Source: Nitrososphaerota archaeon (GTDB lineage: Archaea > Thermoproteota > Nitrososphaeria > Nitrososphaerales > JACQRY01). Taken from it: a DNA stretch of 64,000 nt. This document shows, one piece after another, positions 2,212 through 60,290 of the stretch. The position numbers and the translations under genes were made by a program. Each line of letters opens with the position of its first letter. Position 1 is the first letter of the stretch. The stretch spans positions 64,724 to 128,723 of the forward strand of contig JACPCU010000014.1 of NCBI GenBank assembly GCA_016184315.1. Reading direction: 5' to 3'. The notes below the pieces were generated by a model that was not told the origin of the DNA, made no database searches, and saw only the letters and a list, made by a program, of their open reading frames with translations.

Positions 2212-2397
2212 ATGCCCAACGCCTTCAAATGCGCAGACTTCACAGGAAACCACTACCAAGCAGAATGCCCACCCACAGAAGAACTATGCGCATACAACCA
2301 TGAAGCCTTCAGCACCGACTACACCCTATGCGGAACCAGAAGCGAAACAATCAGCGGCGCAAACTACCGCCTACTACTCAAAGAGGCAGACTACTGA
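2212..2397 (+). CDS. Small Cys-containing protein (61 aa), function unknown
   Basis: Its stop (TGA 2395-2397) overlaps the ATG at 2397 of the next gene. It has four Cys and the same A/C-ending codon bias as the downstream gene. Confidence 0.4.
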   Translation: MPNAFKCADFTGNHYQAECPPTEELCAYNHEAFSTDYTLCGTRSETISGANYRLLLKEADY

Positions 2398-10446: not shown

Positions 10447-10956
10447 CTATCCGCGGCTTGTTCCCGCGAACACCACGCTGAATTCGCACACGCTGGCTCC
10501 TTCACATCGGCACTTGGTTTCCTTGGCCATGTTTTCGCCGAACAGTTCTTTCACAATGCCTGCGATTATTCCGGCAAAATCGTAGCACATAACGCCATTT
10601 GAATTCCTGATGTCCGCGCAGAACACGCAGTCCTCCACTGTAACCATCAACATCATGTCTGATCCCTGGGTCATGTCGATCTTTATTCTCCCCCAGCCTG
10701 CTTGATTAGCCAACTTCGTGAGGTACCCTATGGCTTCCAACGGGTCATCACCCACAGCCCTCTTAGCATGCCTACCGTGCACAACCCCGTAATCAATACC
10801 CGCCCTGTAGAGAATAGACGCGGCTCCAGTCGAATAGTCGCGGAAAAGAGATTGCTTTAGGCGCGCCCACGCACTACTCCCCATAAGGAAGACTCTGCCT
10901 ATGTCGCTGTCAATAACACCTTTCACGGGATCATGCTTGAACAATCCGCTGGTCAT
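10447..10956 (-). CDS. V4R (4-vinyl-reductase-like) domain protein
   Basis: 169 aa with ...AGWGRIKIDM...VEDCVFCADI...CYDFAGIIAGI...KCRCEGASVCEF. This is the canonical V4R Cys pattern. Confidence 0.75.
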   Translation of the reverse strand: MTSGLFKHDPVKGVIDSDIGRVFLMGSSAWARLKQSLFRDYSTGAASILYRAGIDYGVVHGRHAKRAVGDDPLEAIGYLTKLANQAGWGRIKIDMTQGSDMMLMVTVEDCVFCADIRNSNGVMCYDFAGIIAGIVKELFGENMAKETKCRCEGASVCEFSVVFAGTSRG

Positions 10957-35981: not shown

Positions 35982-36659
35982 TTGAAGATACCTTTCCTGC
36001 TCATCAACTTCAAGAACTACGCTGAGGTTGCAGGAGCAGCTTCTCTATCCCTAGCCAAAACTGCTGAACACGTCTCACAGGAGATCGGAGTGAGCATAGG
36101 AGTTGCACCTCCGACTCCGCTTCTATCGCAAGTAGCGAAGGCTGTGGAGATCCCTGTCTTTGCTCAACATGTCGACAAAGAGGGGATGGGAAGCACTACT
36201 GGTGCTACTGTTGTGGAGCATGTGAAGGCAGCCGGGTGTGTCGGCTCCATCGTCAACCATAGCGAGAAGCGTATTCCGTTAGAGTCTATACGCATAGTGG
36301 TGGAGAATCTTAATGGTTTAGGCATGGTCTCCATGGTTTGCGCCAAGACTCCTGCTGAAGTTGCTTCAATAGCTGCTTTTGGACCGAGCTTCGCTGCTAT
36401 TGAGCCCCCTGAGTTGATAGGTTCGGGTAGGGCGGTGTCAAAGGTTAGGCCTGACGTCGTGGTGGATTCAGTTAAGGCAGCTGAGGGGGTGAACCCTTCT
36501 GTCAAGGTGGTTTGCGGCGCAGGTGTTGTTTCGGGAGAGGATGTGGCTGCAGCCATCCGTCTAGGCTCAAAAGGGGTTCTTGTGGCGAGTGGAGTGGTCA
36601 AAGCTAAGGACTGGAAAAAGGCCATCTTCGATCTGGCGCTGCCGTTGGTTAAGCGATGA
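35982..36659 (+). CDS. tpiA: Triose-phosphate isomerase (short archaeal type)
   Basis: 225 aa with LLINFKNY, NHSEKR and AIEPPELIGSG. Confidence 0.9.
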   Translation: MKIPFLLINFKNYAEVAGAASLSLAKTAEHVSQEIGVSIGVAPPTPLLSQVAKAVEIPVFAQHVDKEGMGSTTGATVVEHVKAAGCVGSIVNHSEKRIPLESIRIVVENLNGLGMVSMVCAKTPAEVASIAAFGPSFAAIEPPELIGSGRAVSKVRPDVVVDSVKAAEGVNPSVKVVCGAGVVSGEDVAAAIRLGSKGVLVASGVVKAKDWKKAIFDLALPLVKR

Positions 36660-40861: not shown

Positions 40862-42253
40862 TCATATGATACGCCAACGTGGTTGGGCAAACCTTTGTAG
40901 ACCCGCTCGCTGAATAATTCCCTCAGCAACTCTCTGACCTTCTTCCAATAGTTCTGGCTCGTTGAGCGTCTTAACTTGTCTGTTCTCCATCAGGATCTCG
41001 CCGTCCACGATTACTGTAGCGACACTATCGCCACATGCTGAGTGAAGAAGGTTGGACACGGGATTAAGCAGAGGCACCCATTCAGGTCGCTTGACGTCGA
41101 ATAACACTATGTCTGCTCTCTTCCCGAGCTCGATAGACCCCACTTGGTCTTCCAAGAGAAGCGCCTTAGCGCCGTTTGTCGTCAACATCTCCAGCAATGT
41201 CTCAGGTGGATACAGCTCCGTGTTGGTTCTTGCATCACGAAAAGCTGCCAACCCATATGCTACCCTTATCATATCTAGGAAATTCGATGCGATTGAGCCA
41301 GAGCAGCCCAGTGATAACACGACTCCTCTTCTCATCATGTCATCGAACCTAGCAGCTTTCAGACCTCCGTGTCCGAGGGCGAAGTTGGTCGTGGGCGTCA
41401 CTGATACCTTGACATTCTTTTCGATCATGAGTTCTATTTCTCCTTCCGTGAGCCATGACCCATGAGCGATGAGAAGATTGGGGCCAAGGACTCCTGCTTC
41501 ATGGTAACGGCTGATAGGCAGTTTACCTGAAAAACGGGCCTTATGGTTTTCAAGTGATTCTGTGCTTGCAGACACGTGCGATTGTATTCCCACATTTTCG
41601 GCGTCTGCGAGGCGTTTGATCTCTGATGCTAATTCGCTTGATACTGATGATTCAGCTCTAAGCGAAAACCAAGCTTTAACTCTGCCACTAGCCGCTCCGT
41701 TGAACTTCTTTACGAAACTTTGCCCTTTCTTCACCATTTCATCGGTAAGTGCTGGCGATCTTTCAGAAGCTTTGCCCGGAGGAAAATCCGTGAGGTTTTC
41801 CGCGATAACCGCTCTAGTGCCTGATTTTTCGACAGCTCCGACCAGAGGGTAGGCGTTACCAAAGGCTGGTCCCGGATCGGCTATGCAAGTGACGCCGTTC
41901 TTTAGCAATTCAAGGATGCATAGGCTGGTTGATAGTTGGAGTTCACTGGGGTTTAGTGCAGCTTCGAGAGGATACATTCTTTCACGTACAACTGTCCCCA
42001 TGGGGGCGTTGTCAGCTATTCCTCGGCCGAAGTGACTGGCTGTATGTATGTGGGTGTTTATGAAACCTGGTGTTACAACATTGTTGTGGCCGTCGATGAC
42101 TTTGTCTGCAGAAGGATATTTCTTTAGAACATCGTGCGTCTTCCCAACTGCGGCGATGACGCCGCCCTCAATTGCCATGGCGCCGTCCGCTATGATCTGC
42201 CGTTGAGGGTTTACCGTAATTAGGTATGCAATGTTTTTGATAAGTATGTCCAC
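40862..42253 (-). CDS. Amidohydrolase-superfamily enzyme (chlorohydrolase/aminohydrolase-like)
   Basis: 463 aa with VTPGFINTHIHTASH (the HxH metal motif), and later SHVS and HGSWL. Confidence 0.9.
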   Translation of the reverse strand: MDILIKNIAYLITVNPQRQIIADGAMAIEGGVIAAVGKTHDVLKKYPSADKVIDGHNNVVTPGFINTHIHTASHFGRGIADNAPMGTVVRERMYPLEAALNPSELQLSTSLCILELLKNGVTCIADPGPAFGNAYPLVGAVEKSGTRAVIAENLTDFPPGKASERSPALTDEMVKKGQSFVKKFNGAASGRVKAWFSLRAESSVSSELASEIKRLADAENVGIQSHVSASTESLENHKARFSGKLPISRYHEAGVLGPNLLIAHGSWLTEGEIELMIEKNVKVSVTPTTNFALGHGGLKAARFDDMMRRGVVLSLGCSGSIASNFLDMIRVAYGLAAFRDARTNTELYPPETLLEMLTTNGAKALLLEDQVGSIELGKRADIVLFDVKRPEWVPLLNPVSNLLHSACGDSVATVIVDGEILMENRQVKTLNEPELLEEGQRVAEGIIQRAGLQRFAQPRWRII

Positions 42254-42357
42254 GGTATGAGTGACATTGGGGGATAATTAGAGTCTTACTCTTGCCTTGA
42301 TGGCGGGTTAACATGGATATGTTTGTGGTTGTCAAAAAAGGGGGAGTGCCCAACCTT

Positions 42358-43593
42358 TTAGGCTGGGCCGAATATTGGCTCTAGGTACTTCTTCGCGAAT
42401 TCTTGGGGTTTTGTCAGTGTTTCTGGGTTGGATGAGCCGAGTATTTGGTCTGGGGAAATGTTGGGGAACAGGATGCTAAGAGAGGATTTGGCTACGAAGC
42501 CTAGTCTCATGGGGGATCTGTAGGCGCGGGAGTATATTTCTTGTCCGTCTGGACTTAGCATGAATTCTATGAGTAGTTTAGCTGCGTTGGGATGGGGGGC
42601 ATTCTTGGAGATGATGAAACCTGATGGTAGGACTACAACCGGTGTGATGGGAATGAATTCCAATGGAGCTGCTCTTTCTCTGGCTTGAAGGACATCGTGT
42701 AGGAGACCGTTTATGCCTATGCTTCCCTCTTCAGAGATGACCAGTCGTCCTATTTGGCCGGTGCTCCTGAACATTCTTGCGTCGAGGGCTCTGAGGTCGT
42801 TAAGGAACTTGGTCCACTTTGCGTCATCATTCCAGTTGACCTTAAGTTCTCCTAGGACGTGCGTGAATGGGCCGGCTCGCGCTGGATGATCCAGCAAGAT
42901 CTTGCCTTGGTATTTCGCCGCTAACCCTGGTAGCTGCTCCCATCTTGTTATGCCTTGGATGTCACTCTTCTTCACCAGATTGGGATTGTAGATTGCTACT
43001 GGGACTGTTGCGCCGTAGAAGAACATGCGGTTAGTAGGGTCCTTGATGGGAAAGAGGTCTTTGGTGTATTGTTTAGACTCGTATGGTTGTGCGACTCCTA
43101 TTTCGACTGCGCTTGCGAGAGTGGCTCCATCGTTATCATATACATCCCATATGCTTTGAGCTAGTTTTGATTCAGAAGAGACCCTTGACAGAAGTTCTGG
43201 GCTTTGGGCTGTGTAGAAGTCAACTTTGATGCCGGGGAATTTTTTCTGAAATTCTTGGGCTAGCTTGACCATGTCTTGCTGTTCTCTCACAGAATAGATC
43301 GTGAGTGTTCCTTCTTTGAGGGCTGCTGCGACTAGATTGGGGTCAAAGGGAGTTATTTGTTGGAGAAGGCCTTCTCTTTCAGAAACTTGCTTCCTAGCTT
43401 CTTGTAGAGCTGTTTGGAGGCTGCCTCGGAGCTGTTTTAGGTCGGCGTCAACTGTTGCAATGTCTTTGGTTATTGTGTTGAGGTGGCTTCTGAGCTGACT
43501 TGCTTCTTGGCTCACAGCTAGGTTTGCGTAGCCAAGGGAGGCAGCGGCTAGAAGTATCGCGACTACGGATACAATGATAGGTGTGTTCGCCAT
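42358..43593 (-). CDS. ABC-transporter solute-binding protein (family 1, Fe3+/polyamine-like) with an N-terminal TM anchor and coiled coil
   Basis: From ATG 43593: MANTPIIVSVVAILLAAASL, then a ~60-aa heptad-like stretch, then an SBP fold (YSVREQQD...FYTAQSPE...). No permease or ATPase genes are adjacent. Confidence 0.75.
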   Translation of the reverse strand: MANTPIIVSVVAILLAAASLGYANLAVSQEASQLRSHLNTITKDIATVDADLKQLRGSLQTALQEARKQVSEREGLLQQITPFDPNLVAAALKEGTLTIYSVREQQDMVKLAQEFQKKFPGIKVDFYTAQSPELLSRVSSESKLAQSIWDVYDNDGATLASAVEIGVAQPYESKQYTKDLFPIKDPTNRMFFYGATVPVAIYNPNLVKKSDIQGITRWEQLPGLAAKYQGKILLDHPARAGPFTHVLGELKVNWNDDAKWTKFLNDLRALDARMFRSTGQIGRLVISEEGSIGINGLLHDVLQARERAAPLEFIPITPVVVLPSGFIISKNAPHPNAAKLLIEFMLSPDGQEIYSRAYRSPMRLGFVAKSSLSILFPNISPDQILGSSNPETLTKPQEFAKKYLEPIFGPA

Positions 43594-44027
43594 TTTAGCT
43601 CGTGAAGAATTCCGCTCTATGATAAAAATATTGCTTCTAATAGTTCTACTAATTTCTTGGGTGAAACAAGTCAATATTCACGTTATTATCTGATGATAAT
43701 GAACCATATGTCATTGTTTTGGCAATGATATGAGCCGAGGCTTCTAAGGATCTACGTAGACATTGCGCCGGGTATTGCCGCATAATCGTTGAGTCATAAA
43801 ATCCTTGTCGGTCATCCGGCTCCAGACGTCATGCATCGCATAAATGTCTGCTTGCTCTTAGCCGCGGTGACGGTAGGCTCTTTTCCCTCTTGCGCTATAG
43901 AACGGATTAGAACTAGGGTCAAGACAGTGGCATACTGCTGCAGGTGATAAGAAATATTGATTATTTTCAAAGACGCTTAAAATTGCAGAAAAAGCAGATA
44001 TTGGCGGACAGCTGCACCCGCAGAACA

Positions 44028-46433
44028 ATGGGCAACCGCTATGTAGGCACACGAGTACCACCTAGAGAAGATGTCAGATTTCTGACTGGACGAGGCCAGT
44101 ATATTGATGACTTGAAGCTTCCTGGAATGCTCTATGCCTCAATCCTCCGCAGCCCATATGCCCACGCCTTGATCAAAAGCATCGATACATCATCTGTCCT
44201 AGACCATCAAGGAGTCGCGGCGGTACTGACAGGCACTCAGGCAGCTAAACTTACGGTCCCGGTCTACTCGTGGGCTACGAGGGTCATGAAGCAGTATTGC
44301 CTAGCAACGGATAAAGTTCGTTTCGTAGGAGAGCCAGTCGTCGCAATCGCGGCCTCCACTAGGGCTGAAGCAGAAGAGGCACTCGAATATACCAAGCTTG
44401 AATATGAGCCGCTCAAAGCAGTTGTGGACATCGACAGCGCGGTTAAGCCAGGCGCTCCCCTTGTGTGGGCGGATTTTCCGAACAACATAATCCTAAAGAA
44501 GGTTTGGCATTACGGCGACGTGGAAGCGGCTTTCGCCGAATCCGACTTTACCATCAATGAAAAGCTTAGGATCCATCGATACTCCTCCACCCCGCTTGAA
44601 TGCTACGGCTGCATCGCAAGCTACGACCCATCAAGCCACACACTAACGATCTGGAGCAACTCGCAGCACCCAGGGAGAGATGCCACCTTCCTCTCCGAGG
44701 CGCTAAGGATTCCCCAACACAGAGTAAGGATCATCATACCAGACAGTGGAGGGGGCTTCGGCAACAAGCTGCAGGGACTCAGATACCAGATAATCGCCTC
44801 CTTACTCTCCATGGAGACGAGTAGACCCGTAAAATGGATCGAAAGCAGGATAGAGCATCTTATGGCGCTCTGCCATAAGGCAGATGAGTTCTTCGATGTG
44901 GAAGCTGCATGCACAAAAGATGGCAAGATCCTTGGCCTCCGGATCAAGGACTTCGAAAACAGTGGATCCGACATGGGCTTCGCAGGCTTCTTCTTGCAGA
45001 ACAAGGTGAAGGCGCTGCCAGGGCCATACAGGGCGAGACATTTGCTAGTAGAGGGCACGGCGGTCGCTACGAACAAGGGGCCGATAGGCCCAGACAGAGG
45101 GGTAGCAAAGCCCAGTGCTGCGTTCATCTACGAACGAATGATGGACCTAGTCGCTAGAAAGCTGAATCTAGACAGAGCAGAAATAAGGCGTCGCAACTTC
45201 ATACAGCCAAACGAGTTTCCCTATCGATCACCAACGCGAGAGCTGTATGGAAGCGGCAACTACCCTGAAGCCCTGCAGACAGCGTTGACAATTTCCGGCT
45301 ACCCCCATTTCACAGAGGACGAGCGAGTAGCGAAGGAAGGAAGGCATATTGGCATAGGGCTGGCAACATTCGTCCATGCCGGCACTCCTAACTACGCAGC
45401 AGACTACATCTCAACACGGAGAACCGGCGAAGGGCTTGCAAACAGCTGGACCGGTTTAACCTTGGCATCCACCATCAAGGTCAGCGAGCAGGGAAAGGTA
45501 ACAGTTTTGATGAGTGCTGCAGCCTGCGGGCAAGGTTGGGAGACTGCTTCAGCCCAGGTTGTTGCAGATGAGTTGAAGATAAACATGGATGACGTGAATG
45601 TAATTGGCATCTTCGACTCCTTGACCCACCCTACAACCGGTTACTCGGGCTCGTTCTCTAACACTTTTCAAAGCATGATGGTAGGCTCCATTGTTGGCGC
45701 GGCGAAGAAGGTCAAGGAGAAAGTGTTGCGAATAGCCGCAAGAATCCTCAGTTCGTCACCGAAGGAGCTGATATGGGACTGGAATGGAATCTATGTCAGG
45801 AGCAACGAAGAGAAGCGTACCACGTTCCACGAAGTGGCTTTTGTAGCCAATCGGAATCTGTTTGCTTTATCAAAGGATATTGAACCCGGGCTCCACGAGA
45901 CCTGCTACTACATTCATCCGGAATACCATTTCCAGGAACCAGATGCACAGGGCAGAACAGGTCATTCTCTGACATGGGGAATTGAAGTTCATGTGGCGAC
46001 GGTGCAGGTTGACGTTGAGACGGGTAAAGTCGAGGTGCTCAGATATGCGGTGGTATCGGATAGCGGGAACATCATAAATCCGATCATAGTGGAGGGAATG
46101 GCTCACGGCTCAACAATCCATGGGATCGGGGCAGCACTAGGAGGCGAATTCATATACGACGAAAACGGCCAACCATTGACAACTACATTCATGGATCTAA
46201 TTAAGCCAACAGCGGTCGAATGCCCAGAAGTTCAAGTAAAACATATGGGCACAGCGGATCCTTTCACAGTCCTAGGAACCAAAGGCGCTGGCGAAGGGGG
46301 GTCAACCCCTGCTCCAGCAGCCATCGCAAGCGCCGTAGAAGACGCATTGTCTTCTTATGGAGTGAAGGTCACGGCTCTTCCTCTGACTCCTGAGAAGGTT
46401 TGGAACCTGATTAGACAAGCAGGTCATCAATAA
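44028..46433 (+). CDS. Second XDH/aldehyde-oxidase/CoxL-family molybdopterin-binding large subunit
   Basis: From ATG 44028: MGNRYVGTRVPPREDVRFLTGRGQYIDD. The C-terminus reads TKGAGEGGSTPAPAAIASAVEDAL. The usual AYRG(F/A)G loop reads GPDRGVAKP here. No partner subunits are adjacent. Confidence 0.9.
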   Translation: MGNRYVGTRVPPREDVRFLTGRGQYIDDLKLPGMLYASILRSPYAHALIKSIDTSSVLDHQGVAAVLTGTQAAKLTVPVYSWATRVMKQYCLATDKVRFVGEPVVAIAASTRAEAEEALEYTKLEYEPLKAVVDIDSAVKPGAPLVWADFPNNIILKKVWHYGDVEAAFAESDFTINEKLRIHRYSSTPLECYGCIASYDPSSHTLTIWSNSQHPGRDATFLSEALRIPQHRVRIIIPDSGGGFGNKLQGLRYQIIASLLSMETSRPVKWIESRIEHLMALCHKADEFFDVEAACTKDGKILGLRIKDFENSGSDMGFAGFFLQNKVKALPGPYRARHLLVEGTAVATNKGPIGPDRGVAKPSAAFIYERMMDLVARKLNLDRAEIRRRNFIQPNEFPYRSPTRELYGSGNYPEALQTALTISGYPHFTEDERVAKEGRHIGIGLATFVHAGTPNYAADYISTRRTGEGLANSWTGLTLASTIKVSEQGKVTVLMSAAACGQGWETASAQVVADELKINMDDVNVIGIFDSLTHPTTGYSGSFSNTFQSMMVGSIVGAAKKVKEKVLRIAARILSSSPKELIWDWNGIYVRSNEEKRTTFHEVAFVANRNLFALSKDIEPGLHETCYYIHPEYHFQEPDAQGRTGHSLTWGIEVHVATVQVDVETGKVEVLRYAVVSDSGNIINPIIVEGMAHGSTIHGIGAALGGEFIYDENGQPLTTTFMDLIKPTAVECPEVQVKHMGTADPFTVLGTKGAGEGGSTPAPAAIASAVEDALSSYGVKVTALPLTPEKVWNLIRQAGHQ

Positions 46434-46536
46434 AGGCAGTAACATCTTGAGAATGGTGGCAGAGTGAGAATAATGGTTTTGATACTTCACAAGGCATCAT
46501 TGGATGTCTACACATAGATGTAAGAAACAGGGGGGC

Positions 46537-47550
46537 TCAGATTAGGGGTGAAACAACCTGATCAGTAAGCGTCTTTATGAACGAAAACGTGTCTGGATGC
46601 TCCTGTATGGCAAAAGAGAATTGGTTTACTCCACTCGTATTCATTATTTCTTCGAGTCTGGAGATGCAGTATGACGGTGTGCCGGCTACGACCATGTTGT
46701 CTAGGATCCTGTCGGTTACTAGGCTTATGTGACGAGCTTTCATCCCTTGGTGTTCATAGTAGTCGTACTGCTTGCTTAGTGCTTCGATGTCTTCAATCAG
46801 TTCTTTTGACATGTGTTTCCTGAAGGATTCATCTTTGGCGTACCGAGCCAAGCCGTTTGCCTTGGTCGCAGCTGCCCCCCTGACTATTGATCTTGCTTTG
46901 TCTGCATCTTCGTTGGGATAACACGTGAGTCTAACCCAAATGTCCAGTTCATGTATACTTCTCCCGGTCTCCTTGGCGCCTTCTGCGAGTTGTTCAAGAG
47001 CCCATTCGATGAACCCTGGATGGGAGCCTACGTTGACTATCACTCCGTCGCCTATTTGGGCTGCTAACTTTAGTGATTTGGGTCCAGTAGATGCAATGTA
47101 GATTGGTATTCTAGTCTTTGTCCAAGTTAGCCTTATGTTTCCACTGTCAACTTGCACCTCTTTTCCATTCAGTAGATTTCTGATGATTTGCACGGACTCT
47201 TTGAGTTTCTGGAGGGTGGCAGGTGACCTGTGGATGGTGTGGACCGCGCTGTCTCCGACCCCCATTCCGAGTACCACTCTGCCGGGCGCCAGTTCTTCTA
47301 CGGTAGCTATTGCTCCCGCTGTTACGGTAGGATCTCTGGTTACCGGATTGGTTACGCCGGGTCCTAAGTGAATGTTCTGTGTCTTCTGCAGGGCTAAGAC
47401 AAGGGACGCGTAAACATCTCGCCAGATGAGTTGAGAGTCAGAAAGCCAAGAAATTCCGTTTAGCCCCTTTTCCTCAGCTAGAGCCACATACTCCGCCACC
47501 TTAAGAGCTGGCTCAGTCAGGTTAAATCGGCCACCAGCTCTAATTCTCAT
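46537..47550 (-). CDS. Luciferase-like (LLM-class, probably F420- or flavin-dependent) oxidoreductase
   Basis: 337-aa TIM-barrel LLM pattern: LSDSQLIWRDVY...LGPGVTNPVTRDP...VVLGMGVGDS. Confidence 0.8.
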   Translation of the reverse strand: MRIRAGGRFNLTEPALKVAEYVALAEEKGLNGISWLSDSQLIWRDVYASLVLALQKTQNIHLGPGVTNPVTRDPTVTAGAIATVEELAPGRVVLGMGVGDSAVHTIHRSPATLQKLKESVQIIRNLLNGKEVQVDSGNIRLTWTKTRIPIYIASTGPKSLKLAAQIGDGVIVNVGSHPGFIEWALEQLAEGAKETGRSIHELDIWVRLTCYPNEDADKARSIVRGAAATKANGLARYAKDESFRKHMSKELIEDIEALSKQYDYYEHQGMKARHISLVTDRILDNMVVAGTPSYCISRLEEIMNTSGVNQFSFAIQEHPDTFSFIKTLTDQVVSPLI

Positions 47551-47763
47551 TTGTCATGTACCGTCGTATGCTGGGCTTGATTAAGATTGTCTGCCCACAC
47601 ATTTCCCTGTGTTTCTTTGCGGGTTGGTAAATATGGTGAAATTACTAGGTAACCTCCTTGCAATATAAGCCGTCCGTCAAATAATGTTCCATAGTCAGCA
47701 AAGTTATCTCAACCCTTCAGAGATAGCGATTTAACTCTCTTTTCTCTTGGCAGAAGACGTGGT

Positions 47764-47855
47764 GCGGTCGTCGTCCAGCCTGGTCTAGGACATCAAGGCT
47801 GATGCCGTGTAAGCTTCCCAAGCTGATGACCCGGGTTCAAATCCCGGCGACCGCA
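47764..47855 (+). tRNA. tRNA-Gly (anticodon CCC) with a 17-nt intron in the anticodon stem
   Basis: The sequence reads GCGGTCG-TC-GTCC-AGCCTGGTCTA-GGAC-A-TCA[AGGCTGATGCCGTGTAA]GC-TTCCCAA-GCTGA-TGAC-CCGGG-TTCAAAT-CCCGG-CGACCGC-A. Removing 47796-47812 restores a perfect TCAGC/GCTGA stem. CCA is not encoded. Confidence 0.7.
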
Positions 47856-48407
47856 TTCTCATCTACGCTGCAATTCTCTTCCCAGACGTCTTCCTCCTCT
47901 TATGGAGGAGTACTATCTATTCTCATGTGGAGGATGTACATGAGCACTTGAAACCAGAGCAACCACTGAAAAAGTCAAGAATTCAAGGGGGTAAGACCAC
48001 AGGATAAGACGTTGATAGAGGGAATCAACATCATTCTGCGGACCCAGCGGCTCCAATAAGCTGGGATGCGAAATACGTGAACCACCTGAAGACAATCGGA
48101 GAGACGCTTCAACTGAATCATACCAATGAAGGGCTGAAAGGAGTGACGAAGGAAGACATACAGCAAGTCAGCGATCAGATCAAAGGGTATGAGATCGAGT
48201 TCCACACAAAGAGTGACTGTACAACTGTACAGATTCCATGAAGGGTGTCATCGCCCCATCGAATGGCGTCTAGGAATTCGCCCAGAATGGGAATGAAGAA
48301 CACGTTATTCTCTTTGGCCAGAGACTCCATTAGAAACCTTAGGTCTTGTTGGCGGATCTGTTCTTCAGAATGACTTAATATCATATCATGAGAATACTTG
48401 AGAGCAG

Positions 48408-48818
48408 ATGAATCTCAGAATAATCATCGACAAGGAGGAGTTCCCCGCGAAACTGCATCAAGCCACTGCCCCTAAGACATGCAGCGCCCTCTTACGGGTT
48501 CTACCATTAGCAGGCCATGTGGTTCATGCCCGATGGAGTGGTGAGGCAATCTGGTTACCATTGCCCGATCTGAGAATCGATGTTGGTTTTGAGAATCACA
48601 CGATTTATCCTTCACGAGGAGACTTGCTTTTTTACCCCGGGCTCGTGAGCGAAAAGGAGATTCTCATACCATATGGGCCTTGTGCCTTCGCTAGTAGAGC
48701 CGGCTTCTTGCCAGGCAATCATTTCGCGACTATAACCCAGAAATTAGATAAGTTGGCCGAGATTGGCAAACGCGTTCTATGGGAGGGGGCCAAGAAAATT
48801 TCAATAAGGGCGGGCTGA
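48408..48818 (+). CDS. DUF3830-like (cyclophilin-like fold) protein
   Basis: 136 aa with APKTCSALLRVLPLAGHVVHARWSGEAIWLPL, matching my recollection of the DUF3830 signature. Confidence 0.55.
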   Translation: MNLRIIIDKEEFPAKLHQATAPKTCSALLRVLPLAGHVVHARWSGEAIWLPLPDLRIDVGFENHTIYPSRGDLLFYPGLVSEKEILIPYGPCAFASRAGFLPGNHFATITQKLDKLAEIGKRVLWEGAKKISIRAG

Positions 48819-48858: not shown

Positions 48859-49173
48859 CTAGCAATAATGTGAAGGCTTCTGTTCAAACTTCGGGACTTG
48901 ATGCTTGAACTTCGAGGCATCGACTTTGAGGATTACCTTCTGTGAGGATTCTTCTACCATCGTTTTACTTGCACCGCCGTCGGCGCCGAACCTCCGCGCT
49001 CCCTTTGCCATGATATTGATGGCGGTGTTCATGTCTCTGTCGATGGAGACTTTGGGTTTCGGATAGAAGAGGGTGCGGTGTCCATTCAGGTATGTCTTGA
49101 ACCTACATGCCGAGCATTTCGCACTTGTGCCTCTTGCGTCCATATAGATAATTGGTATGCTTTCCCACTTCGC
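48859..49173 (-). pseudogene. tnpB: tnpB (IS200/IS605-type RNA-guided nuclease) C-terminal stump
   Basis: AKWESIPIIYMDARGTSAKCSACRF...SIDRDMNTAINIMAKG contains a zinc-ribbon remnant and the RuvC-III DRDxNAAxNI motif. An in-frame TAG lies at 49174-49176. About 300 N-terminal codons are absent, and the second CxxC is lost. Confidence 0.7.
48878..48899. repeat. Left terminal inverted repeat
   Basis: TTCTGTTCAAACTTCGGGACTT is the exact reverse complement of 50172-50193. Confidence 0.9.
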
Positions 49174-49256
49174 CTATAATCTATCTGCCTCAGCTTAGCT
49201 TAACTATGTTGTTGCATCGACCAACGTTTATCTAATATCGCTGGAGAGCACAACAA

Positions 49257-50087
49257 ATGAAAATCACCAATGAGCAGCTGGACGAGTTGAAGACTGCCGT
49301 ACAGACCTTGGAGAGGCCCGAATACGATTATCCAAACACAGCCAAACTAATTGAATCCAAGCTGGGCGAACTTACGAGTTACGGATGGAAGGAGCTAAAC
49401 CAGCTCTTTCACGAAATCAAAACCAATTTCTACAATGAGTTGTGTGATGACGGAACCTTTTGCCAGACTGTCTTCACCCTGATTTTTGATGGTATAATAA
49501 TTCCATCTCTTGATGCAGATCAAGCAATCAAGATTCAGTTCTTTGACCAATACAAGGCACAACTGGAGAGCAGATGTCTATCAGCAAGAACAGTGAACAG
49601 GATAATGCGGGCGTTCCAAACGAAAATCGACCGTGAGCAGATGTATTATGCCGACTGCCTTCTATATTTGTTGCTGGTTGAGGGTGTGTACGACGAGAAC
49701 ATGAAGATTCTTTACAGCCAGTGGAAGGCAGCCAAAGGTGAGATGGTGGATCCTAATGAACTAGCGAACAAGAACTTGGGCGACATTATGGCTGAAATGA
49801 CCAAGGATGGTTTTGACCCTTTGTTTAGAGGCTGGAAGAAGCATCTTCGGAACTCCATAGCACATGCTCGATTTGCCTTCGACCCTGTATCGGGCAAGAT
49901 CACATTCAAGGATGGAGAATATGACAAGTCTGAGAGGAAGTGGGTCGAGAATTTTAGTGAAGAGCTTACAGTGCAGGAGTTTGAAGAGAAGTACTTCAAC
50001 AAGGTCTGGACTGTCTGCGTATGCAATCAGCATCTACCGATGCTAGTCAGGATTTTCGAAATCTTTTTTGCAGAACAGAATCCATAG
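49257..50087 (+). CDS. All-alpha protein with an RNxxxH (HEPN-like) motif; candidate RNase toxin or defence effector
   Basis: An intact 276-aa ORF. It has KKHLRNSIAHARFAF (R198-x4-H203) in a helical context. No other family was recognised. Confidence 0.45.
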   Translation: MKITNEQLDELKTAVQTLERPEYDYPNTAKLIESKLGELTSYGWKELNQLFHEIKTNFYNELCDDGTFCQTVFTLIFDGIIIPSLDADQAIKIQFFDQYKAQLESRCLSARTVNRIMRAFQTKIDREQMYYADCLLYLLLVEGVYDENMKILYSQWKAAKGEMVDPNELANKNLGDIMAEMTKDGFDPLFRGWKKHLRNSIAHARFAFDPVSGKITFKDGEYDKSERKWVENFSEELTVQEFEEKYFNKVWTVCVCNQHLPMLVRIFEIFFAEQNP

Positions 50088-50171
50088 GAACTATTCAGTG
50101 TCAAGAAGTCTCTGGTATCCCGAACTGAAGCCTTTGAAGTCAGGAACCGCTTGGCAATCTAGGCTTAGAAT

Positions 50172-50193
50172 AAGTCCCGAAGTTTGAACAGAA
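50172..50193. repeat. Right terminal inverted repeat
   Basis: AAGTCCCGAAGTTTGAACAGAA is the exact reverse complement of 48878-48899. Confidence 0.9.
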
Positions 50194-50220
50194 CTATGTG
50201 AAGGAAGATACAAATTCACC

Positions 50221-54555: not shown

Positions 54556-55533
54556 TTGGCGATTCGTTTCACACCGTTGGCCGCGGAGTCACTAGGCGTG
54601 AGGTCTATGGCTCTGATGGTTGAAACACCTGACCTTAGGATTCTGCTAGATGCGAGTGCAGCTCTAGGAATGCGGCAAAGGCTACTGCCTCATCCGAGCG
54701 AGTATTTGGCCCTCAGGGAATCTAGGAAGAGAATCGTTGAAAATGCGGAGAAGGCAGACATAATCACGATCTCCCACTACCATTTCGACCATTATACTGC
54801 CACATGGAAAAGTCTCGAAGTAGTGTCGAGCTGGAGCAGCTACGATGAGGCCAGACGAATCTATGGAGGAAAAACAGTTTACGCCAAGGACTATCGGAGC
54901 AGCATAAACCCAAGTCAGAGGAGGCGTGGATATCTGTTCAGCAAAATCGCCTCCGATTTCATCGGAAAACTGCAGTACTCGGACTCCAAGAAGGTCACGG
55001 TGGGAGACACAACCATCAAATTCACGAAGCCGCTGCTCCACGGAGAAGAAGATTCAGGCCTGGGATACGTAATCGGAGCCATGATCTCCCACGGAGACTC
55101 GACCCTGATGTTCTGCCCCGATGTGCAGGGACCAATGAACAGCTCAACTCTCAGGCTTATTATTAGAACTAAACCAGATGTACTAGTCATAGGTGGACCA
55201 CCTGAATACCTATCAGGATACAAAGTCCCTGAAGATATGATCAAAAGGGGAATGGGGAATCTGGGGAAGCTTGCAGCGCAAGTCCCTTTGACGATTGCTG
55301 AGCATCATCTTCTAAGGAGTATGCGTGGCTTAGGTTGGCTGGACGATCTGAAGAAAATTGCTGCTGAGAACGGCAATCGAATGTGCAGTGCGGCAGACTA
55401 TCTGGGCGTTGAGAACCGGCTTCTTGAAGCTAATCGAAGCCTTCTTTACGAGGAGGAGCCTCCTGCTCAAGAGTTTCAGAAGTGGGTGAAGATGTCTCCT
55501 CTTCGACGGGGGTCTCTGCCGCCTCCTCTATGA
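54556..55533 (+). CDS. Metallo-beta-lactamase-fold hydrolase (archaeal UPF0282-like)
   Basis: FTPLAAESLGVRSMALMVET...ISHYHFDHYT is the HxHxDH motif. The C-terminal tail overlaps the convergent gene. Confidence 0.7.
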   Translation: MAIRFTPLAAESLGVRSMALMVETPDLRILLDASAALGMRQRLLPHPSEYLALRESRKRIVENAEKADIITISHYHFDHYTATWKSLEVVSSWSSYDEARRIYGGKTVYAKDYRSSINPSQRRRGYLFSKIASDFIGKLQYSDSKKVTVGDTTIKFTKPLLHGEEDSGLGYVIGAMISHGDSTLMFCPDVQGPMNSSTLRLIIRTKPDVLVIGGPPEYLSGYKVPEDMIKRGMGNLGKLAAQVPLTIAEHHLLRSMRGLGWLDDLKKIAAENGNRMCSAADYLGVENRLLEANRSLLYEEEPPAQEFQKWVKMSPLRRGSLPPPL

Positions 55534-55963
55534 CTTGTTCAGCAGGTTCAGGCGGCTGGGCAGGCTGCTGATTTGCCTGCGCAATTTGCTTTGCGATTTG
55601 CTCTGCGTACTCTTCGGTGATGACTCTCGCCATATGGAGGTTTACCAGAGAGTTGGCTGAGGCTTCTCCGCTGACCTTCCCCGCTCGCCCACGTATCTGT
55701 CTCCAGATTAAACGTGTATTGCCGCTTTTGGATGCGTATATGACTCCGAGTATGTCTGTTGCATTGATGAACGAAATGTCACGTATCCCCTTGAGGGTGA
55801 CTTTGTCAGCTGCCTCTACGTATATGGCTCCGCCTTCGCCTTCTCTTTCAGGGAAGACCTCTGGGTCTCCAAGGTAGCTGTCAGGGATGAAGGATCGGCA
55901 TGTGCTGTAGATGACGAATCTCCTGAAGCTCTCCAACGATGCTGTGGTGTTGATCTGAACCAA
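55430..55963 (-). CDS. Hypothetical protein with an acidic/Pro-rich C-terminal tail
   Basis: A 177-aa ORF with no family recognised. Its last ~35 codons overlap the 3' end of 54556..55533. Confidence 0.4.
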   Translation of the reverse strand: MVQINTTASLESFRRFVIYSTCRSFIPDSYLGDPEVFPEREGEGGAIYVEAADKVTLKGIRDISFINATDILGVIYASKSGNTRLIWRQIRGRAGKVSGEASANSLVNLHMARVITEEYAEQIAKQIAQANQQPAQPPEPAEQVIEEAAETPVEEETSSPTSETLEQEAPPRKEGFD

Positions 55964-56046
55964 GGCGGCGCTCCCCCTTCTGCCAGAGCACCCGTATTAA
56001 TGTGTTAAAAACCCTGTTTCCTTAAAGCTTAAGATATATGCATGGC

Positions 56047-58164
56047 TCATTGTCTCAGTATAAGCTCGGAGTCAAGTAGCCTGCCGCAGCTAGGACACAA
56101 GAACTGTCTCAGTAAAGCTCGGCTACGCTTAGGATACATCAAGCCTCCTTCTGAAAGCTCTGCTTCCAGGAATTTGATTGCCAGATTCTTGCCGCCGAGG
56201 CTCCATACTCCGTTGCCGCAGCCGGCGCACTCCACTGAAGACTTTTCGTTTTTGCTCGGGCGTAGAGATTCGCCCAACCTGGCGGATCCATCGTTGCGAC
56301 CTGAGATTAGGAATGTTGGCGTATCAGTGTCAGTTGCCTTTCTCCTCCTTTCCTCACTTATCTCGGCTCTCAGCACTGAGGTTTTCTGTTTGTCAACTTC
56401 TTTTCCAACGAGATCGACGGAAACACCGTATATCGCTGACGCTGCTCTAGGTGAAACAAACCCGTTCAACGCGTCGTGTAACACGCTATCCACTTCTCTT
56501 TCCAAGGGGTCTCCGTAGCCTCCTCCTGCATTGTGGCGGCAGTAGAAGACAGAGTCGTCTGCAAACTCTTTGGGTGATATCTTCGATGGAAAGTCTTCTC
56601 CCTCGCCGTCAAGCTCCTCTAGGGATGCCGGAATCCTACCTGCCTTCAACATGCTGCGGATGTTTGTCTTGCGTCTGATTGCTCTCAGCATACATCCTCC
56701 GGGGTAACCTCCGTAGATTCCTTGCGAGGCCGGCACCTCAGAGCCGTGTCCTCCCCCACTCACTTGCACGCTGCTGCTCTTGTGCCTGATGAAGGCGTAT
56801 TCGCAGGCTAGACCTCCGCGAAACTTACCCGCACCACCTGAATCCATGGCGAGACGGTGGTAAAGAAAGAGAATAGGAGCGAAGGCTTCAGCAGCCTCTA
56901 CGTTGGGCATGCTGGGCTTGGTTGGTGACATGCTGAAGCTGGAGTCGAAGCCGTCTTTGTAGGCCATTCCTCCCGCTCCGCCACTGCTCTGAAAGGGGAA
57001 CGAAAATCTCTGCCCGTACTGGTCCTCTCCGCTCGTCAGGGGTGTTGCTTTGCCTCCTTCCCAGACTGCACCTGCTCTCTGCCAATACTTGTCGCTCGAA
57101 CCAAGCATCCGTGAAATGGCGAGAGTGGCTGCGTTTCTAACGGCGAAGGACGCTGCAGTCGAGGCTAACCCGACTGGAGCAGGAGGAATTGAATTCACCA
57201 CGCTTCCCTCAGGAGCTATTACAGAGATAGGGTGAAGCACACCGTGGTTCCACGGAATATCGTAGCAGAGGAAGGGCAGCACGGCGCCCATGACCCCCGC
57301 CCAGGTGCCCGAAATGGTGCAGTTGATAGGACCCTTTGCTTGTCCGTCTGATCCGGTGAAGTCGAAGGTCAGCGAGTCGTTCTTCTTGGTGAGCTGAAGT
57401 TTGACTGTGTAAATGTGGCTCGTGTTGCCGTCGTGATCAATGTAGTCGTTCTGGGGGAAGTTTCCGTCGGGAAGTTCCCTCAGTCTTTGCCTCAGCCTAG
57501 TCTCGGAGATCTGGATCAGCTGGTTCATCATGCTGTTTGCAGTTTCGGAACTGTATCGCCTGAATAATGATTCAAGCCTATTTCTCGCAGTGTTGTTCGT
57601 CGCTATTCTTGCCTTGATGTCAAGGCCAACTAAACCGGGCTGCCTGACATTGCTCAGAATCATGTCCAAGACATCTTTTTTCAAAACGCCTTTGTTGACA
57701 ATCTTCAGGGAAGGGATGCGTAGACCCTCCTGATATGTCTCTGAGGCACCAGATGGAGCGCCTGGCTGCATGGCGCCTATGTCAACTTCGTGGGCGACTA
57801 CGCCTGTCCACGCGGATAGTCGGCCTTCGTAGAAGAACGGTGCAACAACAGCAACGTCTAGCTGGTGGAGGGCTCCTTTGTAAGGATCGTTGGCGATGAA
57901 CATGTCGCCTTCCGAAACATCGTCGCCATACACTGATGCTATGTGTTGGATGATGGTGGGCAGCACAGTGGCATGGATGGTTACGTAGGATCCCATGGTC
58001 ACCATCTTGCTATCAGGTGTCATGATTCCTACGTTGAAGTCGCTGGCTTCTTTGACTGTAGGCGAGCCTGAGACGTTCCTCAGCGTAATCGCCATCTCCT
58101 CGGTGATTTGCCACAGCCTGTGCCTAACCACCTCCAAGGTGAAAGGATCGGTCGAAGGCTTCAA
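56047..58164 (-). CDS. hyuB: Hydantoinase B/oxoprolinase-family subunit with a C-terminal zinc-ribbon extension
   Basis: 705 aa with the HyuB core (DPFTLEVVRHRLWQITEEM...). The extra ~120 aa end in CAGCGN...CPSCG, which resembles the acetone-carboxylase gamma-subunit-type ribbon. Confidence 0.85.
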   Translation of the reverse strand: MKPSTDPFTLEVVRHRLWQITEEMAITLRNVSGSPTVKEASDFNVGIMTPDSKMVTMGSYVTIHATVLPTIIQHIASVYGDDVSEGDMFIANDPYKGALHQLDVAVVAPFFYEGRLSAWTGVVAHEVDIGAMQPGAPSGASETYQEGLRIPSLKIVNKGVLKKDVLDMILSNVRQPGLVGLDIKARIATNNTARNRLESLFRRYSSETANSMMNQLIQISETRLRQRLRELPDGNFPQNDYIDHDGNTSHIYTVKLQLTKKNDSLTFDFTGSDGQAKGPINCTISGTWAGVMGAVLPFLCYDIPWNHGVLHPISVIAPEGSVVNSIPPAPVGLASTAASFAVRNAATLAISRMLGSSDKYWQRAGAVWEGGKATPLTSGEDQYGQRFSFPFQSSGGAGGMAYKDGFDSSFSMSPTKPSMPNVEAAEAFAPILFLYHRLAMDSGGAGKFRGGLACEYAFIRHKSSSVQVSGGGHGSEVPASQGIYGGYPGGCMLRAIRRKTNIRSMLKAGRIPASLEELDGEGEDFPSKISPKEFADDSVFYCRHNAGGGYGDPLEREVDSVLHDALNGFVSPRAASAIYGVSVDLVGKEVDKQKTSVLRAEISEERRRKATDTDTPTFLISGRNDGSARLGESLRPSKNEKSSVECAGCGNGVWSLGGKNLAIKFLEAELSEGGLMYPKRSRALLRQFLCPSCGRLLDSELILRQ

Positions 58165-58169
58165 AGTTT

Positions 58170-60290
58170 CTACACTTCTCCTGTGCGCAGCCTGAAGTTC
58201 AGGAACGGATCCACAGTCAAAGTTGATTTCGGCGCCACGGGGATTGTGTTGCCCATCAGCTCCACTACTGCGGGCCCCTGAATCTGGTTTCCATTCCTCA
58301 ATCTGTGTCCATCGTAGATGACTGTTCTCAGGAATCTGTCTTCTTCTTCAAAGTAGACTTCTCTGTAACCTTTCTTGGTTTTGGACAGGTCGGAACTCGT
58401 TTGTTCACTCTTCTTCAAAGAGGGTTTCCATGTTCTGCCTAGGATATCGACGCGGAAGGTTGACGCCTCTAAGCCTGCCTCAGAGTAAGCTGTCCCACTT
58501 CCGTAGCGAGTCTCATAGGTGTCGAGAAACCTGTTCTCTAGGGTCTTCGCGTCGATCTCTGACAGGGTGCCGTTGGGAACAGACACCATTAACTCGTTCA
58601 TCTGCGCCCTGAACCTTAACCCTATGGATCTGATTAGGAACAATGAGTCCGGAGGCAAATGCCATGGGGCAGCAGCCTCTAAGGCAGTTTTCTCAAGCTT
58701 AGAAAAGTTCCCGTTGAACCGACTCAGATCTGGCGGGAACCGCATATAGTCCGACAGAACATATGACTGTTGGAGATCAGACACAGCCACGCCAAACGCA
58801 CTGTGCACAGTTGCCAAAGAGGGAATAACTACTTGCTGCGATAACTCTTTCGCGTACCCCGGGCAGTGGAGAGGCCCTGCTCCCCCGTAGGCGAAGAGCA
58901 CAAACTCATTAGGATCCAGCCCACGTTCCACCGTGGCGTTACGAATCAAGTCTGCTGCTTGACTGTTAGCTACACTGTAGATCCCTGCAGCTGCTTCAAC
59001 CATGTCTACCCCTAGTCTGTCTGCTAGTTTCTTAACGGCCTCCTTGGCGTTATGCTCGTCGAGCCTCATTTTTCCTCCGAGGAAATAGTCAGGATTAAGA
59101 TAGCCCAACACAAGATCAGCGTCAGTAACTGTGGGCTCAGCACCTCCCCAGCCATAGCATGCAGGCCCAGGATTCGCTCCTGCGCTTCTCGGCCCTACTT
59201 TGACCATGCCTCCTTCATCTATCCAGGCTAAGCTTCCTCCACCTGAACCTATGGCTGTCAGATCTATGGTGGGAACCTGAAGGGTGTAGCGCGTCATGTA
59301 AGGGCCGAAGCGAGGGGAAAACGCTTCAGCCCTAATTAGGGGGCTACCGTCAAGGATTACTCCGACTTCGAAGGTTGTTCCCCCCATGTCTGTTGTGATG
59401 ATGTTTGAGAAGCCTAAGAGTTCACCTAGGTATTTGGAGGCGATTACTCCTCCTGCTAGGCCCGATGCTAGTGTTGACACCGCCATCTTGGGGGCGTCCG
59501 ACATCGGTATGACTCCTCCGCTCGACTGCATCATAAGAGGTGTCGAGACGAGGCCGTTGGAGAAGAGGGCTTCCCGCAGATCCTCAGCGTAACGCCTTAA
59601 CACGGGGCCCAGATAGGCGTTGATGGCTGTTGTAGCTGTCCGCTCATATTCTCCCAGCACAGGGGCGACTTCAGAAGATAGGCTTACGAACAGGCCTTTC
59701 CTCTTACGTTCAATTATCTTCTTGACTGTCTGCTCATGGCTGGGGTTCTTGAAGGACCATAGGAGTGAGACTGCTATCGATTCGACTCCCTTGTCAATTA
59801 GGTTTTCGACTGCTTCCTCAGCGCTCTTCTCGTTTAGCTGGCAGATCACTTCGCCGCTGTAGTCAACTCTCTCTTCCACCTCTTCGGTTAGATCCAATGG
59901 CACTATCATAGGTGGTCTTGTAACTCTGTTCATGTCTACCGCCTCAGATTCGGGGAGGCCTGCGGCCCTTGTGGCTTTCATCATGTAGAGGTGATGCTGG
60001 AAGCCCTTGGTGGTGATAAGCGCGGTTTTGGCGCCTCGGAGCTGGACGAGGGCGTTGACGGCTACTGTTGTGCCGTGGGCGAAGAGTTGTGTGTGTTTGA
60101 GGAGGTCTGGTATGCTTAGCTGTAGTTGTTGGGCTAGGATTTGGAGGCAGTTGACTACTCCTGTGTGTATGTTGTCTGTCGTTGGGGTCTTGGCGTAAAC
60201 CATGTTTTCGTCTTCTCCCATCGCGATTCCGTCGGTGAAGGTGCCTCCTACGTCGATTCCGACGGAGTATTTTGTTGATCTTTGTTCCAT
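58170..60290 (-). CDS. hyuA: Hydantoinase A/oxoprolinase-family subunit
   Basis: 706 aa with the ATPase motifs SVGIDVGGTFTD and TDMGGTTFEV. It lies 5 nt upstream of hyuB. Confidence 0.9.
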   Translation of the reverse strand: MEQRSTKYSVGIDVGGTFTDGIAMGEDENMVYAKTPTTDNIHTGVVNCLQILAQQLQLSIPDLLKHTQLFAHGTTVAVNALVQLRGAKTALITTKGFQHHLYMMKATRAAGLPESEAVDMNRVTRPPMIVPLDLTEEVEERVDYSGEVICQLNEKSAEEAVENLIDKGVESIAVSLLWSFKNPSHEQTVKKIIERKRKGLFVSLSSEVAPVLGEYERTATTAINAYLGPVLRRYAEDLREALFSNGLVSTPLMMQSSGGVIPMSDAPKMAVSTLASGLAGGVIASKYLGELLGFSNIITTDMGGTTFEVGVILDGSPLIRAEAFSPRFGPYMTRYTLQVPTIDLTAIGSGGGSLAWIDEGGMVKVGPRSAGANPGPACYGWGGAEPTVTDADLVLGYLNPDYFLGGKMRLDEHNAKEAVKKLADRLGVDMVEAAAGIYSVANSQAADLIRNATVERGLDPNEFVLFAYGGAGPLHCPGYAKELSQQVVIPSLATVHSAFGVAVSDLQQSYVLSDYMRFPPDLSRFNGNFSKLEKTALEAAAPWHLPPDSLFLIRSIGLRFRAQMNELMVSVPNGTLSEIDAKTLENRFLDTYETRYGSGTAYSEAGLEASTFRVDILGRTWKPSLKKSEQTSSDLSKTKKGYREVYFEEEDRFLRTVIYDGHRLRNGNQIQGPAVVELMGNTIPVAPKSTLTVDPFLNFRLRTGEV

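Follow-up and report, generated by a model that had tools for sequence, protein, structure and literature searches.

Insertion sequences of the IS6/IS26 family are bounded by short terminal inverted repeats (TIRs), for which Harmer & Hall (PMC6807381) give the consensus GGTTCTGTTGCAAA, the GG tip and the G at position 7 (G7) being nearly universal. In archaeal members, the TIRs often have GG and G7, lack the G at position 10 (G10) and share a consensus of at least 18 bp; the tip dinucleotides vary (CG/CA, GG/CA, GA, GT), and the target-site duplications are mostly of 8 bp, with 9 bp in ISH15 and ISPfu5 (PMC6807381). The GG tip, the cTGTt and caaa motifs and the 8-bp repeats of IS6 are also described by Varani et al. 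(PMC7986276), who list two IS6 miniature inverted-repeat transposable elements (MITEs) of 227 and 336 bp, as well as ISDsp3 with one passenger gene. Here, we describe a unit of 1,320 bp at positions 48876-50195 of a 64,000-nt stretch of DNA (hereafter the window) from the metagenome-assembled genome (MAG) of a soil/groundwater Nitrososphaerota archaeon (contig JACPCU010000014.1). With a probability of roughly 0.7, this unit is a non-autonomous transposable element of the archaeal IS6/IS26-like kind, which carries a HEPN-type cargo gene and an inert relic of a tnpB gene. Thaumarchaeota/Nitrososphaerota are absent among the 37 archaeal insertion sequences tabulated by Harmer & Hall (PMC6807381), and the unit would place a mobile element of the IS6/IS26 type in this lineage.

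Two kinds of described system bear on the tnpB end. The IS200/IS605 family has asymmetric ends, with neither TIRs nor a target-site duplication (PMC13565253). The six DDE-associated TnpB branches of Altae-Tran et al. (2023), termed DDE-1 to DDE-6, all have inverted terminal repeats, and the tnpB 3' end usually lies no more than 250 bp from the transposon end (PMC10691335). IS630, ISL2 and IS1031 are the TnpB partners given in a 2026 review, in which IS6 is unnamed (PMC13565253). A preliminary description of the window, made from the sequence alone, had left a choice between a non-autonomous element of another family holding a tnpB end and an undescribed TIR-bearing TnpB-type element. The former is backed by the copies, the IS6-like terminus and the duplication reported below. 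As for the latter, the word "undescribed" does not hold, since TIR-bearing DDE TnpB transposons have already been described in prokaryotes (PMC10691335).

Terminal inverted repeats and target-site duplication

The 22-mer TTCTGTTCAAACTTCGGGACTT at 48878-48899 recurs as its exact reverse complement at 50172-50193, with 22 of 22 positions matching. These are the only two sites in the window that match TTCTGTTCAAACTTCGGGACTT with three mismatches or fewer, and 100 shuffles gave none; the perfect 22-bp inverted repeats noticed in the preliminary description are thus far beyond chance. Outside them, the 9-mer ATGTGAAGG is found in direct orientation at 48868-48876 and 50196-50204, which had been taken as a 9-bp flanking repeat. 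The repeat is indeed present and likewise far beyond chance, but its length is better read differently. If a tip of 2 nt is allowed on each side, namely GC at 48876-48877 and CT at 50194-50195 (AG on the other strand), the unit becomes symmetric and the 8-mer ATGTGAAG directly abuts both tips. The geometry would therefore be that of a 24-bp TIR (22 of 24 positions, the tip dinucleotides being mismatched) with an 8-bp target-site duplication, ATGTGAAG, and the G that makes the ninth match of the direct repeat would then open the left tip. Alternatively, the duplication may measure 9 bp, with asymmetric tips of 1 and 2 nt.

Under the 24-bp reading, the left duplication occupies 48868-48875, the left TIR 48876-48899 (plus strand; tip GC followed by TTCTGTTCAAACTTCGGGACTT), the right TIR 50172-50195 (minus strand; AG-TTCTGTTCAAACTTCGGGACTT from the tip) and the right duplication 50196-50203. 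Inside the 22-mer, the left end continues as GATGCTTGAAC…, and the right end, whose flank reads CTTCACAT, continues as ATTCTAAGCC…. The probability that an identical 8-mer adjoins both tips at fixed symmetric positions is 4^-8 = 1.5e-5. The uninterrupted target site can be reconstructed as CTAGCAATAATGTGAAGGAAGATACAAATTCACC. In total, the window contains ATGTGAAGG four times, compared with 0.58 expected from shuffles; the two extra exact copies are located at 10499-10507 (minus strand) and 36220-36228 (plus strand), with no 22-mer-like sequence near either.

Other copies of the ends

A protein search with the translated tnpB stump of the left end revealed a 66-aa relative with 77% identity, which belongs to a second copy of the unit (copy 2). 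It is present on three short Logan contigs (L004-L006) from sequencing runs shared with the window locus. Copy 2 aligns with the window in two blocks: 48873-49074, which comprises the tnpB end and the 22-mer with one G-to-A change (TTCTGTTCAAACTTTGGGACTT), at 85.6% identity, and 49208-49392, which comprises the cargo promoter and the first 45 cargo codons, at 86.6% identity. Between the two blocks the alignment is patchy, with indels and one 20-nt island over the first CxxC, as expected of a drifting pseudogene. From its tip, GG, copy 2 reads TTCTGTTCAAACTTTGGGACTT and then GATGTTTGAAC…. The similarity stops exactly at this tip, and the flank (GAGAAAAG) and the flanking genes are unlike anything in the window. 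Copy 2 is seen at one end only, as contig L004 terminates within the cargo gene. The Logan contigs of the window locus itself (four runs; L008-L010, L015) end at window position 49412 or 49425, and the copy-2 contig at the equivalent of 49392. These breaks are probably caused by k-mers common to both cargo-gene copies in the same samples, which would mean that copy 2 also carries the remaining cargo gene.

A third instance of the 22-mer, an exact one, was the single match of a degenerate 22-mer scan of JGI metagenomes. In this contig (L011, at 1-76), the sequence on both sides of the 22-mer is unrelated to the above and no tnpB adjoins it; the contig breaks 46 nt inside, so that one end is seen. 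Its flank is GTTAAAAC, its tip CG, and the sequence inside TTCTGTTCAAACTTCGGGACTT is GCTAACCC…. Outside, an ORF of 330 aa (L011 74-1066, minus strand), which encodes an N-terminal HTH and a CxxC…CxxC ribbon, has its stop codon about 3 nt from the tip. Inside, a TATA-like TTTATAT is followed by an inward-pointing ATG just before the contig end, where the missing transposase gene may begin.

No significant similarity was detected inside the 22-mer among the window left end, the window right end and L011; therefore, the right end is not an inverted copy of the tnpB end. Likewise, the 84 non-coding nt that separate the cargo stop codon from the right TIR (50088-50171) have no significant similarity to the inside of the other three ends. 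Since the terminal 24 bp alone are common to all four ends, they act like a TIR recognised by a transposase and not like a duplicated gene end. Copy 2 and L011 thus have what is generally expected of a transposable element, unrelated contexts with homology ending at the tip (one end each). The further copies that the preliminary description had proposed to look for do exist, and its counter-case, in which no other copy occurs and the 22-mer is merely a tnpB 3' segment, is contradicted by copy 2 and by the tnpB-free 22-mer in L011.

Relation to the IS6/IS26 family

From the tip, the four ends read GC, AG, GG and CG, each followed by TTCTGTTCAAACTT(C/T)GGGACTT. The terminus consensus is GGTTCTGTTCAAAC… (13 of 14 positions in the left TIR), and that of all four ends is GGTTCTGTTCAAACTT…. 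Compared with the IS6/IS26 consensus, the first nine bases of GGTTCTGTTCAAAC are an exact match, position 10 is not G, and CAAA comes next. The chance of a nine-base exact match to the terminus of one family is about 4e-6. Together with the 8-bp duplication, this match makes a strong case for assigning the ends to the IS6-like kind, archaeal type. The four-end consensus has the GG tip, G7, cTGTt and caaa, and, as in archaea, no G10 over at least 18 bp. The 8 bp of ATGTGAAG agree with the length usual in IS6, and the 9-bp reading would agree with the rarer one. In short, the unit combines 24-bp TIRs of the GGTTCTGTT-CAAA signature, an 8-bp duplication, the lack of a transposase and a diverged copy with the same boundary. 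The preliminary description, which took the TIRs and the duplication as the trace of a transposase-type insertion, is thus borne out by the copy in another flank as well as by the IS6/IS26-like terminus and duplication length.

The unit shares with archaeal IS6/IS26 elements such as ISH14, ISH29, ISPfu1 and ISSis1 the TIRs starting GGTTCTGTT…CAAA, with G7, no G10 and at least 18 bp, the duplications of 8 bp and occasionally 9, and the variable tip dinucleotides. It differs from them in its length (1,320 bp compared with about 700-850 bp), in the unrelated genes aboard, in its tips GC and AG, in its host, a Thaumarchaeota/Nitrososphaerota MAG, and in its interior. The H-HTH-containing DDE transposase of about 210-235 aa that marks IS6 members is absent, and the interior ORFs are the TnpB stump and the HEPN-type protein, as already noticed in the preliminary description, which saw no recognisable transposase. 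The unit is therefore not filed as an IS6 member, but as a non-autonomous derivative. In this respect it resembles the IS6 MITEs and ISDsp3, where both ends of the insertion sequence are kept, the transposase is needed in trans and a passenger ORF is possible. However, the MITEs are devoid of ORFs and a transposase is retained in ISDsp3, whereas the unit combines transposase loss, a functional-looking cargo and a tnpB relic.

The following mechanism could account for these features. An IS6-type DDE transposase, encoded elsewhere in the genome or the community, would bind both repeats and join their 3' ends to staggered target cuts 8 bp apart, and repair or replication would then produce the duplication. 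For IS26, transposition proceeds by replicative copy-in and cointegrate resolution. At some stage, the tnpB 3' end would have turned into subterminal sequence of the element, and the self-promoted HEPN-type cargo would be carried along and mobilised whenever the transposase is supplied in trans. On this reading the unit is no new class, but an IS6-type element of a thaumarchaeon that has no transposase and carries a cargo gene and a tnpB relic. Its significance would be that a small insertion sequence, in a derivative lacking the transposase, can transport a gene (HEPN) of probable defence or addiction function, and that a tnpB 3' end is juxtaposed with a DDE-type terminal repeat.

Several observations weigh against this reading. 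Only one TIR pair with its duplication has been seen, since copy 2 was recovered without its right end. The empty site with a single repeat, which the preliminary description had proposed to look for, did not turn up in an exact look-up of two flanking proteins: every contig with these exact proteins is 100% identical to the window, with the insertion present. Neither a cognate IS6-type transposase nor an autonomous copy was found in genome, metagenome and viral scans. None of 185,579 representative genomes contains the exact 22-mer, and no viral contig matched a degenerate 20-mer core of it. In the family assignment, the archaeal IS6 members were compared through published consensus text and not through aligned archaeal IS6 sequences. 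The tips of the window copy are GC and AG, not GG, which is intact in copy 2 only; GC and AG fall, however, within the tip variation tabulated for archaeal IS6 members. As for the cargo, the window protein scores below the gathering cutoff of the Pfam HEPN family pEK499_p136 (PF18736), with E 0.011 and 15.9 bits compared with a cutoff of 26.6, and Foldseek gave no significant fold match in PDB and BFVD.

The tnpB end and its origin

The left part of the unit is a tnpB pseudogene stump, the last 104 codons of the gene (48859-49173, minus strand), and an in-frame TAG at 49174-49176 precedes the stump frame. Its translation, KCSACR…SIDRDMNTAINI, which includes …KCSACRFKTYLNGHRTLFYPKPKVSIDRDMNTAINI…, holds half of a zinc ribbon, the RuvC-III motif DRDMNTAINI and a C-terminal tail. 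It matches the Pfam family Cas12f1-like_TNB (PF07282) above gathering (E 7e-9) and aligns to positions 330-389 of 389, that is, the last 60 or so, in NCBIfam guided_TnpB. By these matches, the stump is the extreme C-terminus of TnpB with a tail of about 47 aa. The tnpB-like minus-strand stump of the preliminary description is thereby confirmed; of the check it had proposed against a TnpB model, the alignment to the C-terminal end came out as anticipated, but the 22-mer is not confined to a tnpB end, being tnpB-free in L011. RuvC-I, RuvC-II and everything upstream are absent, so that the stump cannot be a nuclease, and the "transposase" call in the annotation of this MAG corresponds to a pseudogene fragment.

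The comparison with copy 2 points in the same direction. The second CxxC of the zinc ribbon is CPKC in copy 2 and has decayed to YPKPK in the window, and the codons of the stump differ at 16 non-synonymous and 8 synonymous positions. Its divergence is close to neutral, which suggests a decaying relic; further signs of this are the loss of zinc-ribbon cysteines and the indels upstream. The stop codon of the stump ORF lies in the flank, beyond the left TIR, and the frame runs through the TIR to the tip in both copies. The terminal 65 nt differ between the two copies at 4 of 65 positions compared with 24 of 132 further in (p = 0.03), and this low divergence suggests a cis-acting constraint at the tnpB end. 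Direct reading shows a subterminal hairpin at 48882-48910 (minus strand), formed by GTTCAAAC within the TIR, 13 nt and GCTTGAAC, which is also present in the predicted fold. Written for both copies as GTTCAARC, 13 nt and GTTTGAAC, it has TIR bases as one arm; eight of eight pairs are formed in copy 2, and the window has seven Watson-Crick pairs and a G·T in place of an A-T. The whole 203-nt tnpB end folds no better than shuffles (z = -0.85) and matches no Rfam family, and the reading of this end as a guide RNA or other RNA was rejected on these two grounds.

Full-length relatives of the stump were sought widely. In the 185,579 representative genomes, the stump protein gave 599 pattern matches, none of them confirmed. 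When the stump and the two-copy alignment were used in a word-indexed protein search, only the two stumps themselves came back and no full-length TnpB. There was no match to the stump alignment in viral contigs, and none to the stump in PDB (sequence search) or in phages (tblastn). Two 419-aa ORFs of the window were considered as full-length tnpB and rejected: they are mutually unrelated, one being a glutamate dehydrogenase and the other, at 2328-3587 (plus strand), having no Pfam match at E <= 0.01.

How the tnpB end came to lie against the TIR can be explained in two ways. A nested insertion fits the data: an IS605/IS1341-type tnpB element would have inserted into, or recombined with, an IS6-like element, and a deletion would have left its 3' end against the TIR. 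In that case, the unit would be an ordinary decayed, nested mobile-element relic. Alternatively, tnpB may have been native to the unit, a view that we hold to be possible though rather unlikely. An autonomous TIR-bounded IS6-like DDE transposon would have had tnpB at its right end, with a guide-RNA scaffold running into the TIR, and the transposase together with most of tnpB would later have been replaced by the HEPN cargo; the stump would then be the original right end and not a captured fragment. The reading frame that reaches the very tip in both copies speaks for this view, as do the last 65 nt, which are the best-conserved part of the unit, the 8-bp hairpin with TIR bases as one arm and its A-T to G·T change, and the L011 TIR followed by a TATA-like box and an inward ATG, as for the start of a transposase gene. 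DDE-linked TnpBs with inverted terminal repeats are, moreover, documented (PMC10691335; PMC13565253). However, neither a full-length tnpB nor a transposase with these ends came to light in genome, metagenome, viral and protein searches, the DDE families reported as TnpB partners are IS630, ISL2 and IS1031 and do not include IS6 (PMC13565253), and the end yields neither a fold better than shuffles nor an Rfam match, as given above. In addition, replicative transposition of the IS6 type would leave no empty donor site for an RNA-guided nuclease, and homing would be of no obvious use.

The DDE-associated TnpB transposons, for example the IS630-linked ones, also have the tnpB 3' end at a symmetric TIR-type end, but the unit has a dead stump of 104 codons, no transposase and an IS6-like TIR. 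A more specific form of the native origin, slightly less probable again, is that the stump is the fossil right end of an undescribed Nitrososphaerota family, which would combine an IS6-type DDE transposase with a TnpB whose scaffold ends in the 24-bp TIR. If true, DDE transposases and TnpB would have become associated once more and independently, in a prokaryotic counterpart of the Fanzor-carrying DDE transposons, and TnpB would be placed in a replicative transposon, where "restorative homing" should be unneeded. More generally, a native tnpB end would add one more transposase family that recruited RNA-guided nucleases, with the use of TnpB to a replicative transposon as the question.

A very improbable explanation is that the 22-mer is the right end, or the end of the guide-RNA scaffold, of an IS200/IS605 element (IS1341 type), the inverted repeat having arisen by a local inverted duplication and the 8- to 9-mer match being coincidental. 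Its merit is that in two copies the tnpB 3' coding end contains the 22-mer, with a subterminal hairpin next to it, as expected of an IS605-type right end, and that no empty site occurs among the contigs with the exact flanking proteins. The IS1341 group and its miniature derivatives indeed share with the unit a tnpB sequence with a subterminal hairpin near the end. Nevertheless, two of the 22-mers are free of tnpB (the window right end and L011), the identical 8-mer at both tips has a chance probability of about 1.5e-5, the first nine bases of the consensus end equal the IS6 consensus exactly, and TIRs or duplications are foreign to IS200/IS605 elements (PMC13565253). The unit, with its TIR and duplication and only the last 104 codons of tnpB, lacks what defines membership of that group.

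An invertible DNA switch, in which site-specific recombination at the 22-bp repeats would invert the 1.3 kb between them, would suit a perfect inverted repeat bracketing a gene with its own promoter, but it is hardly credible, as there is no recombinase gene in or beside the unit, the assemblies of several runs are 100% identical where they overlap and show one orientation (only L007 spans both repeats), no contig with the alternative junction was seen, and inversion leaves the duplication, the second copy and the IS6-type repeat sequence unexplained.

The HEPN-type cargo gene

The cargo gene of the IS6-like unit is an uninterrupted ORF at 49257-50087 (plus strand), opposite to the stump, and encodes a 276-aa protein; the preliminary description had called it HEPN-like and, rightly, intact. 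Upstream of it, the spacer at 49174-49256 (plus strand) contains an archaeal TATA-like box, TTTATCTAATAT (49227-49238), about 26 nt before the cargo ATG. In copy 2, the box reads TTTATCTT and its spacing is conserved, which suggests that the box is the cargo's own promoter. The cargo family comprises 138 representative clusters, mostly of about 275 aa, and R198, N199, H203 and G143 are invariant in the 41 aligned members. The residues from R198 to H203 (R198-N199-x3-H203) form the Rx4H motif of the HEPN superfamily, here as RNxxxH. Among the 41 relatives, 11 match PF18736 (best E 4.4e-7). The likeness to this family therefore consists of the invariant motif and of weak to moderate Pfam matches, and the difference of an under-threshold window protein within a distinct family of about 275 aa, with no solved or viral structural neighbour. 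PADLOC matches to CARF-HEPN/Csx1 are weak and concern few relatives. The AF2 model (pLDDT 94) is mostly helical with a β-meander insert; the matches of the cargo in a PDB profile search were dismissed as spurious helical bundles.

Over the 45 codons visible in copy 2, the cargo shows 4 non-synonymous and 8 synonymous differences, and the contrast with the stump in substitution pattern is only suggestive (Fisher p = 0.08). These substitutions, the conserved TATA-like box and the invariant RNxxxH suggest that the part of the unit under selection is the cargo. Its product is probably an RNase of the abortive-infection or addiction type, and no partner (antitoxin) gene is present within the unit.

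The cargo relatives that were looked up are metagenomic singletons, and an exact look-up of the cargo protein gave no record. Nor was there a match of the cargo protein to plasmids or of the whole unit to a phage collection. Two homologues with about 30% identity could be placed in their neighbourhoods. One (L001-L003, 5001-5876) is within an island that also encodes a tyrosine integrase and an ERCC4-type nuclease, no TIRs being found around it at L001; the other, on the JGI contig of P0003, lies directly upstream of an SduA_C (Shedu-type) gene. These neighbourhoods hint at a mobile or defence context. In addition, P0006, a protein of 1870 aa, has 30 separate stretches that match cargo residues 229-268 (the final β-strand and the beginning of the C-terminal helix), and is either a repeat protein built from this cargo segment or a compositional artefact.

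Genomic surroundings

The element sits between two gene sets, at 40862-48818 and 54556-60290 (also in L007). One of the flanking sets is catabolic-looking, with a molybdenum hydroxylase (xanthine-dehydrogenase-like), a luciferase-like monooxygenase, an amidohydrolase, an ABC substrate-binding protein, DUF3830 and, further on, hydantoinase A/B. The other is of the housekeeping and regulatory kind, with an HTH regulator, SIMPL, a GyrI-like protein, P5C reductase and arcadin-1. About 1 kb upstream of the element, a tRNA-like gene of 94 nt is located at 47763-47856 (plus strand), which ARAGORN reports as "tRNA-???" and which scores 21 bits with the Rfam tRNA model compared with a gathering threshold of 29. 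It has a clean acceptor stem (GCGGTCG…CGACCGC), the T-arm CCGGGTTCAAATCCCGG and extra sequence in the anticodon region, and is probably an intron-containing archaeal tRNA.

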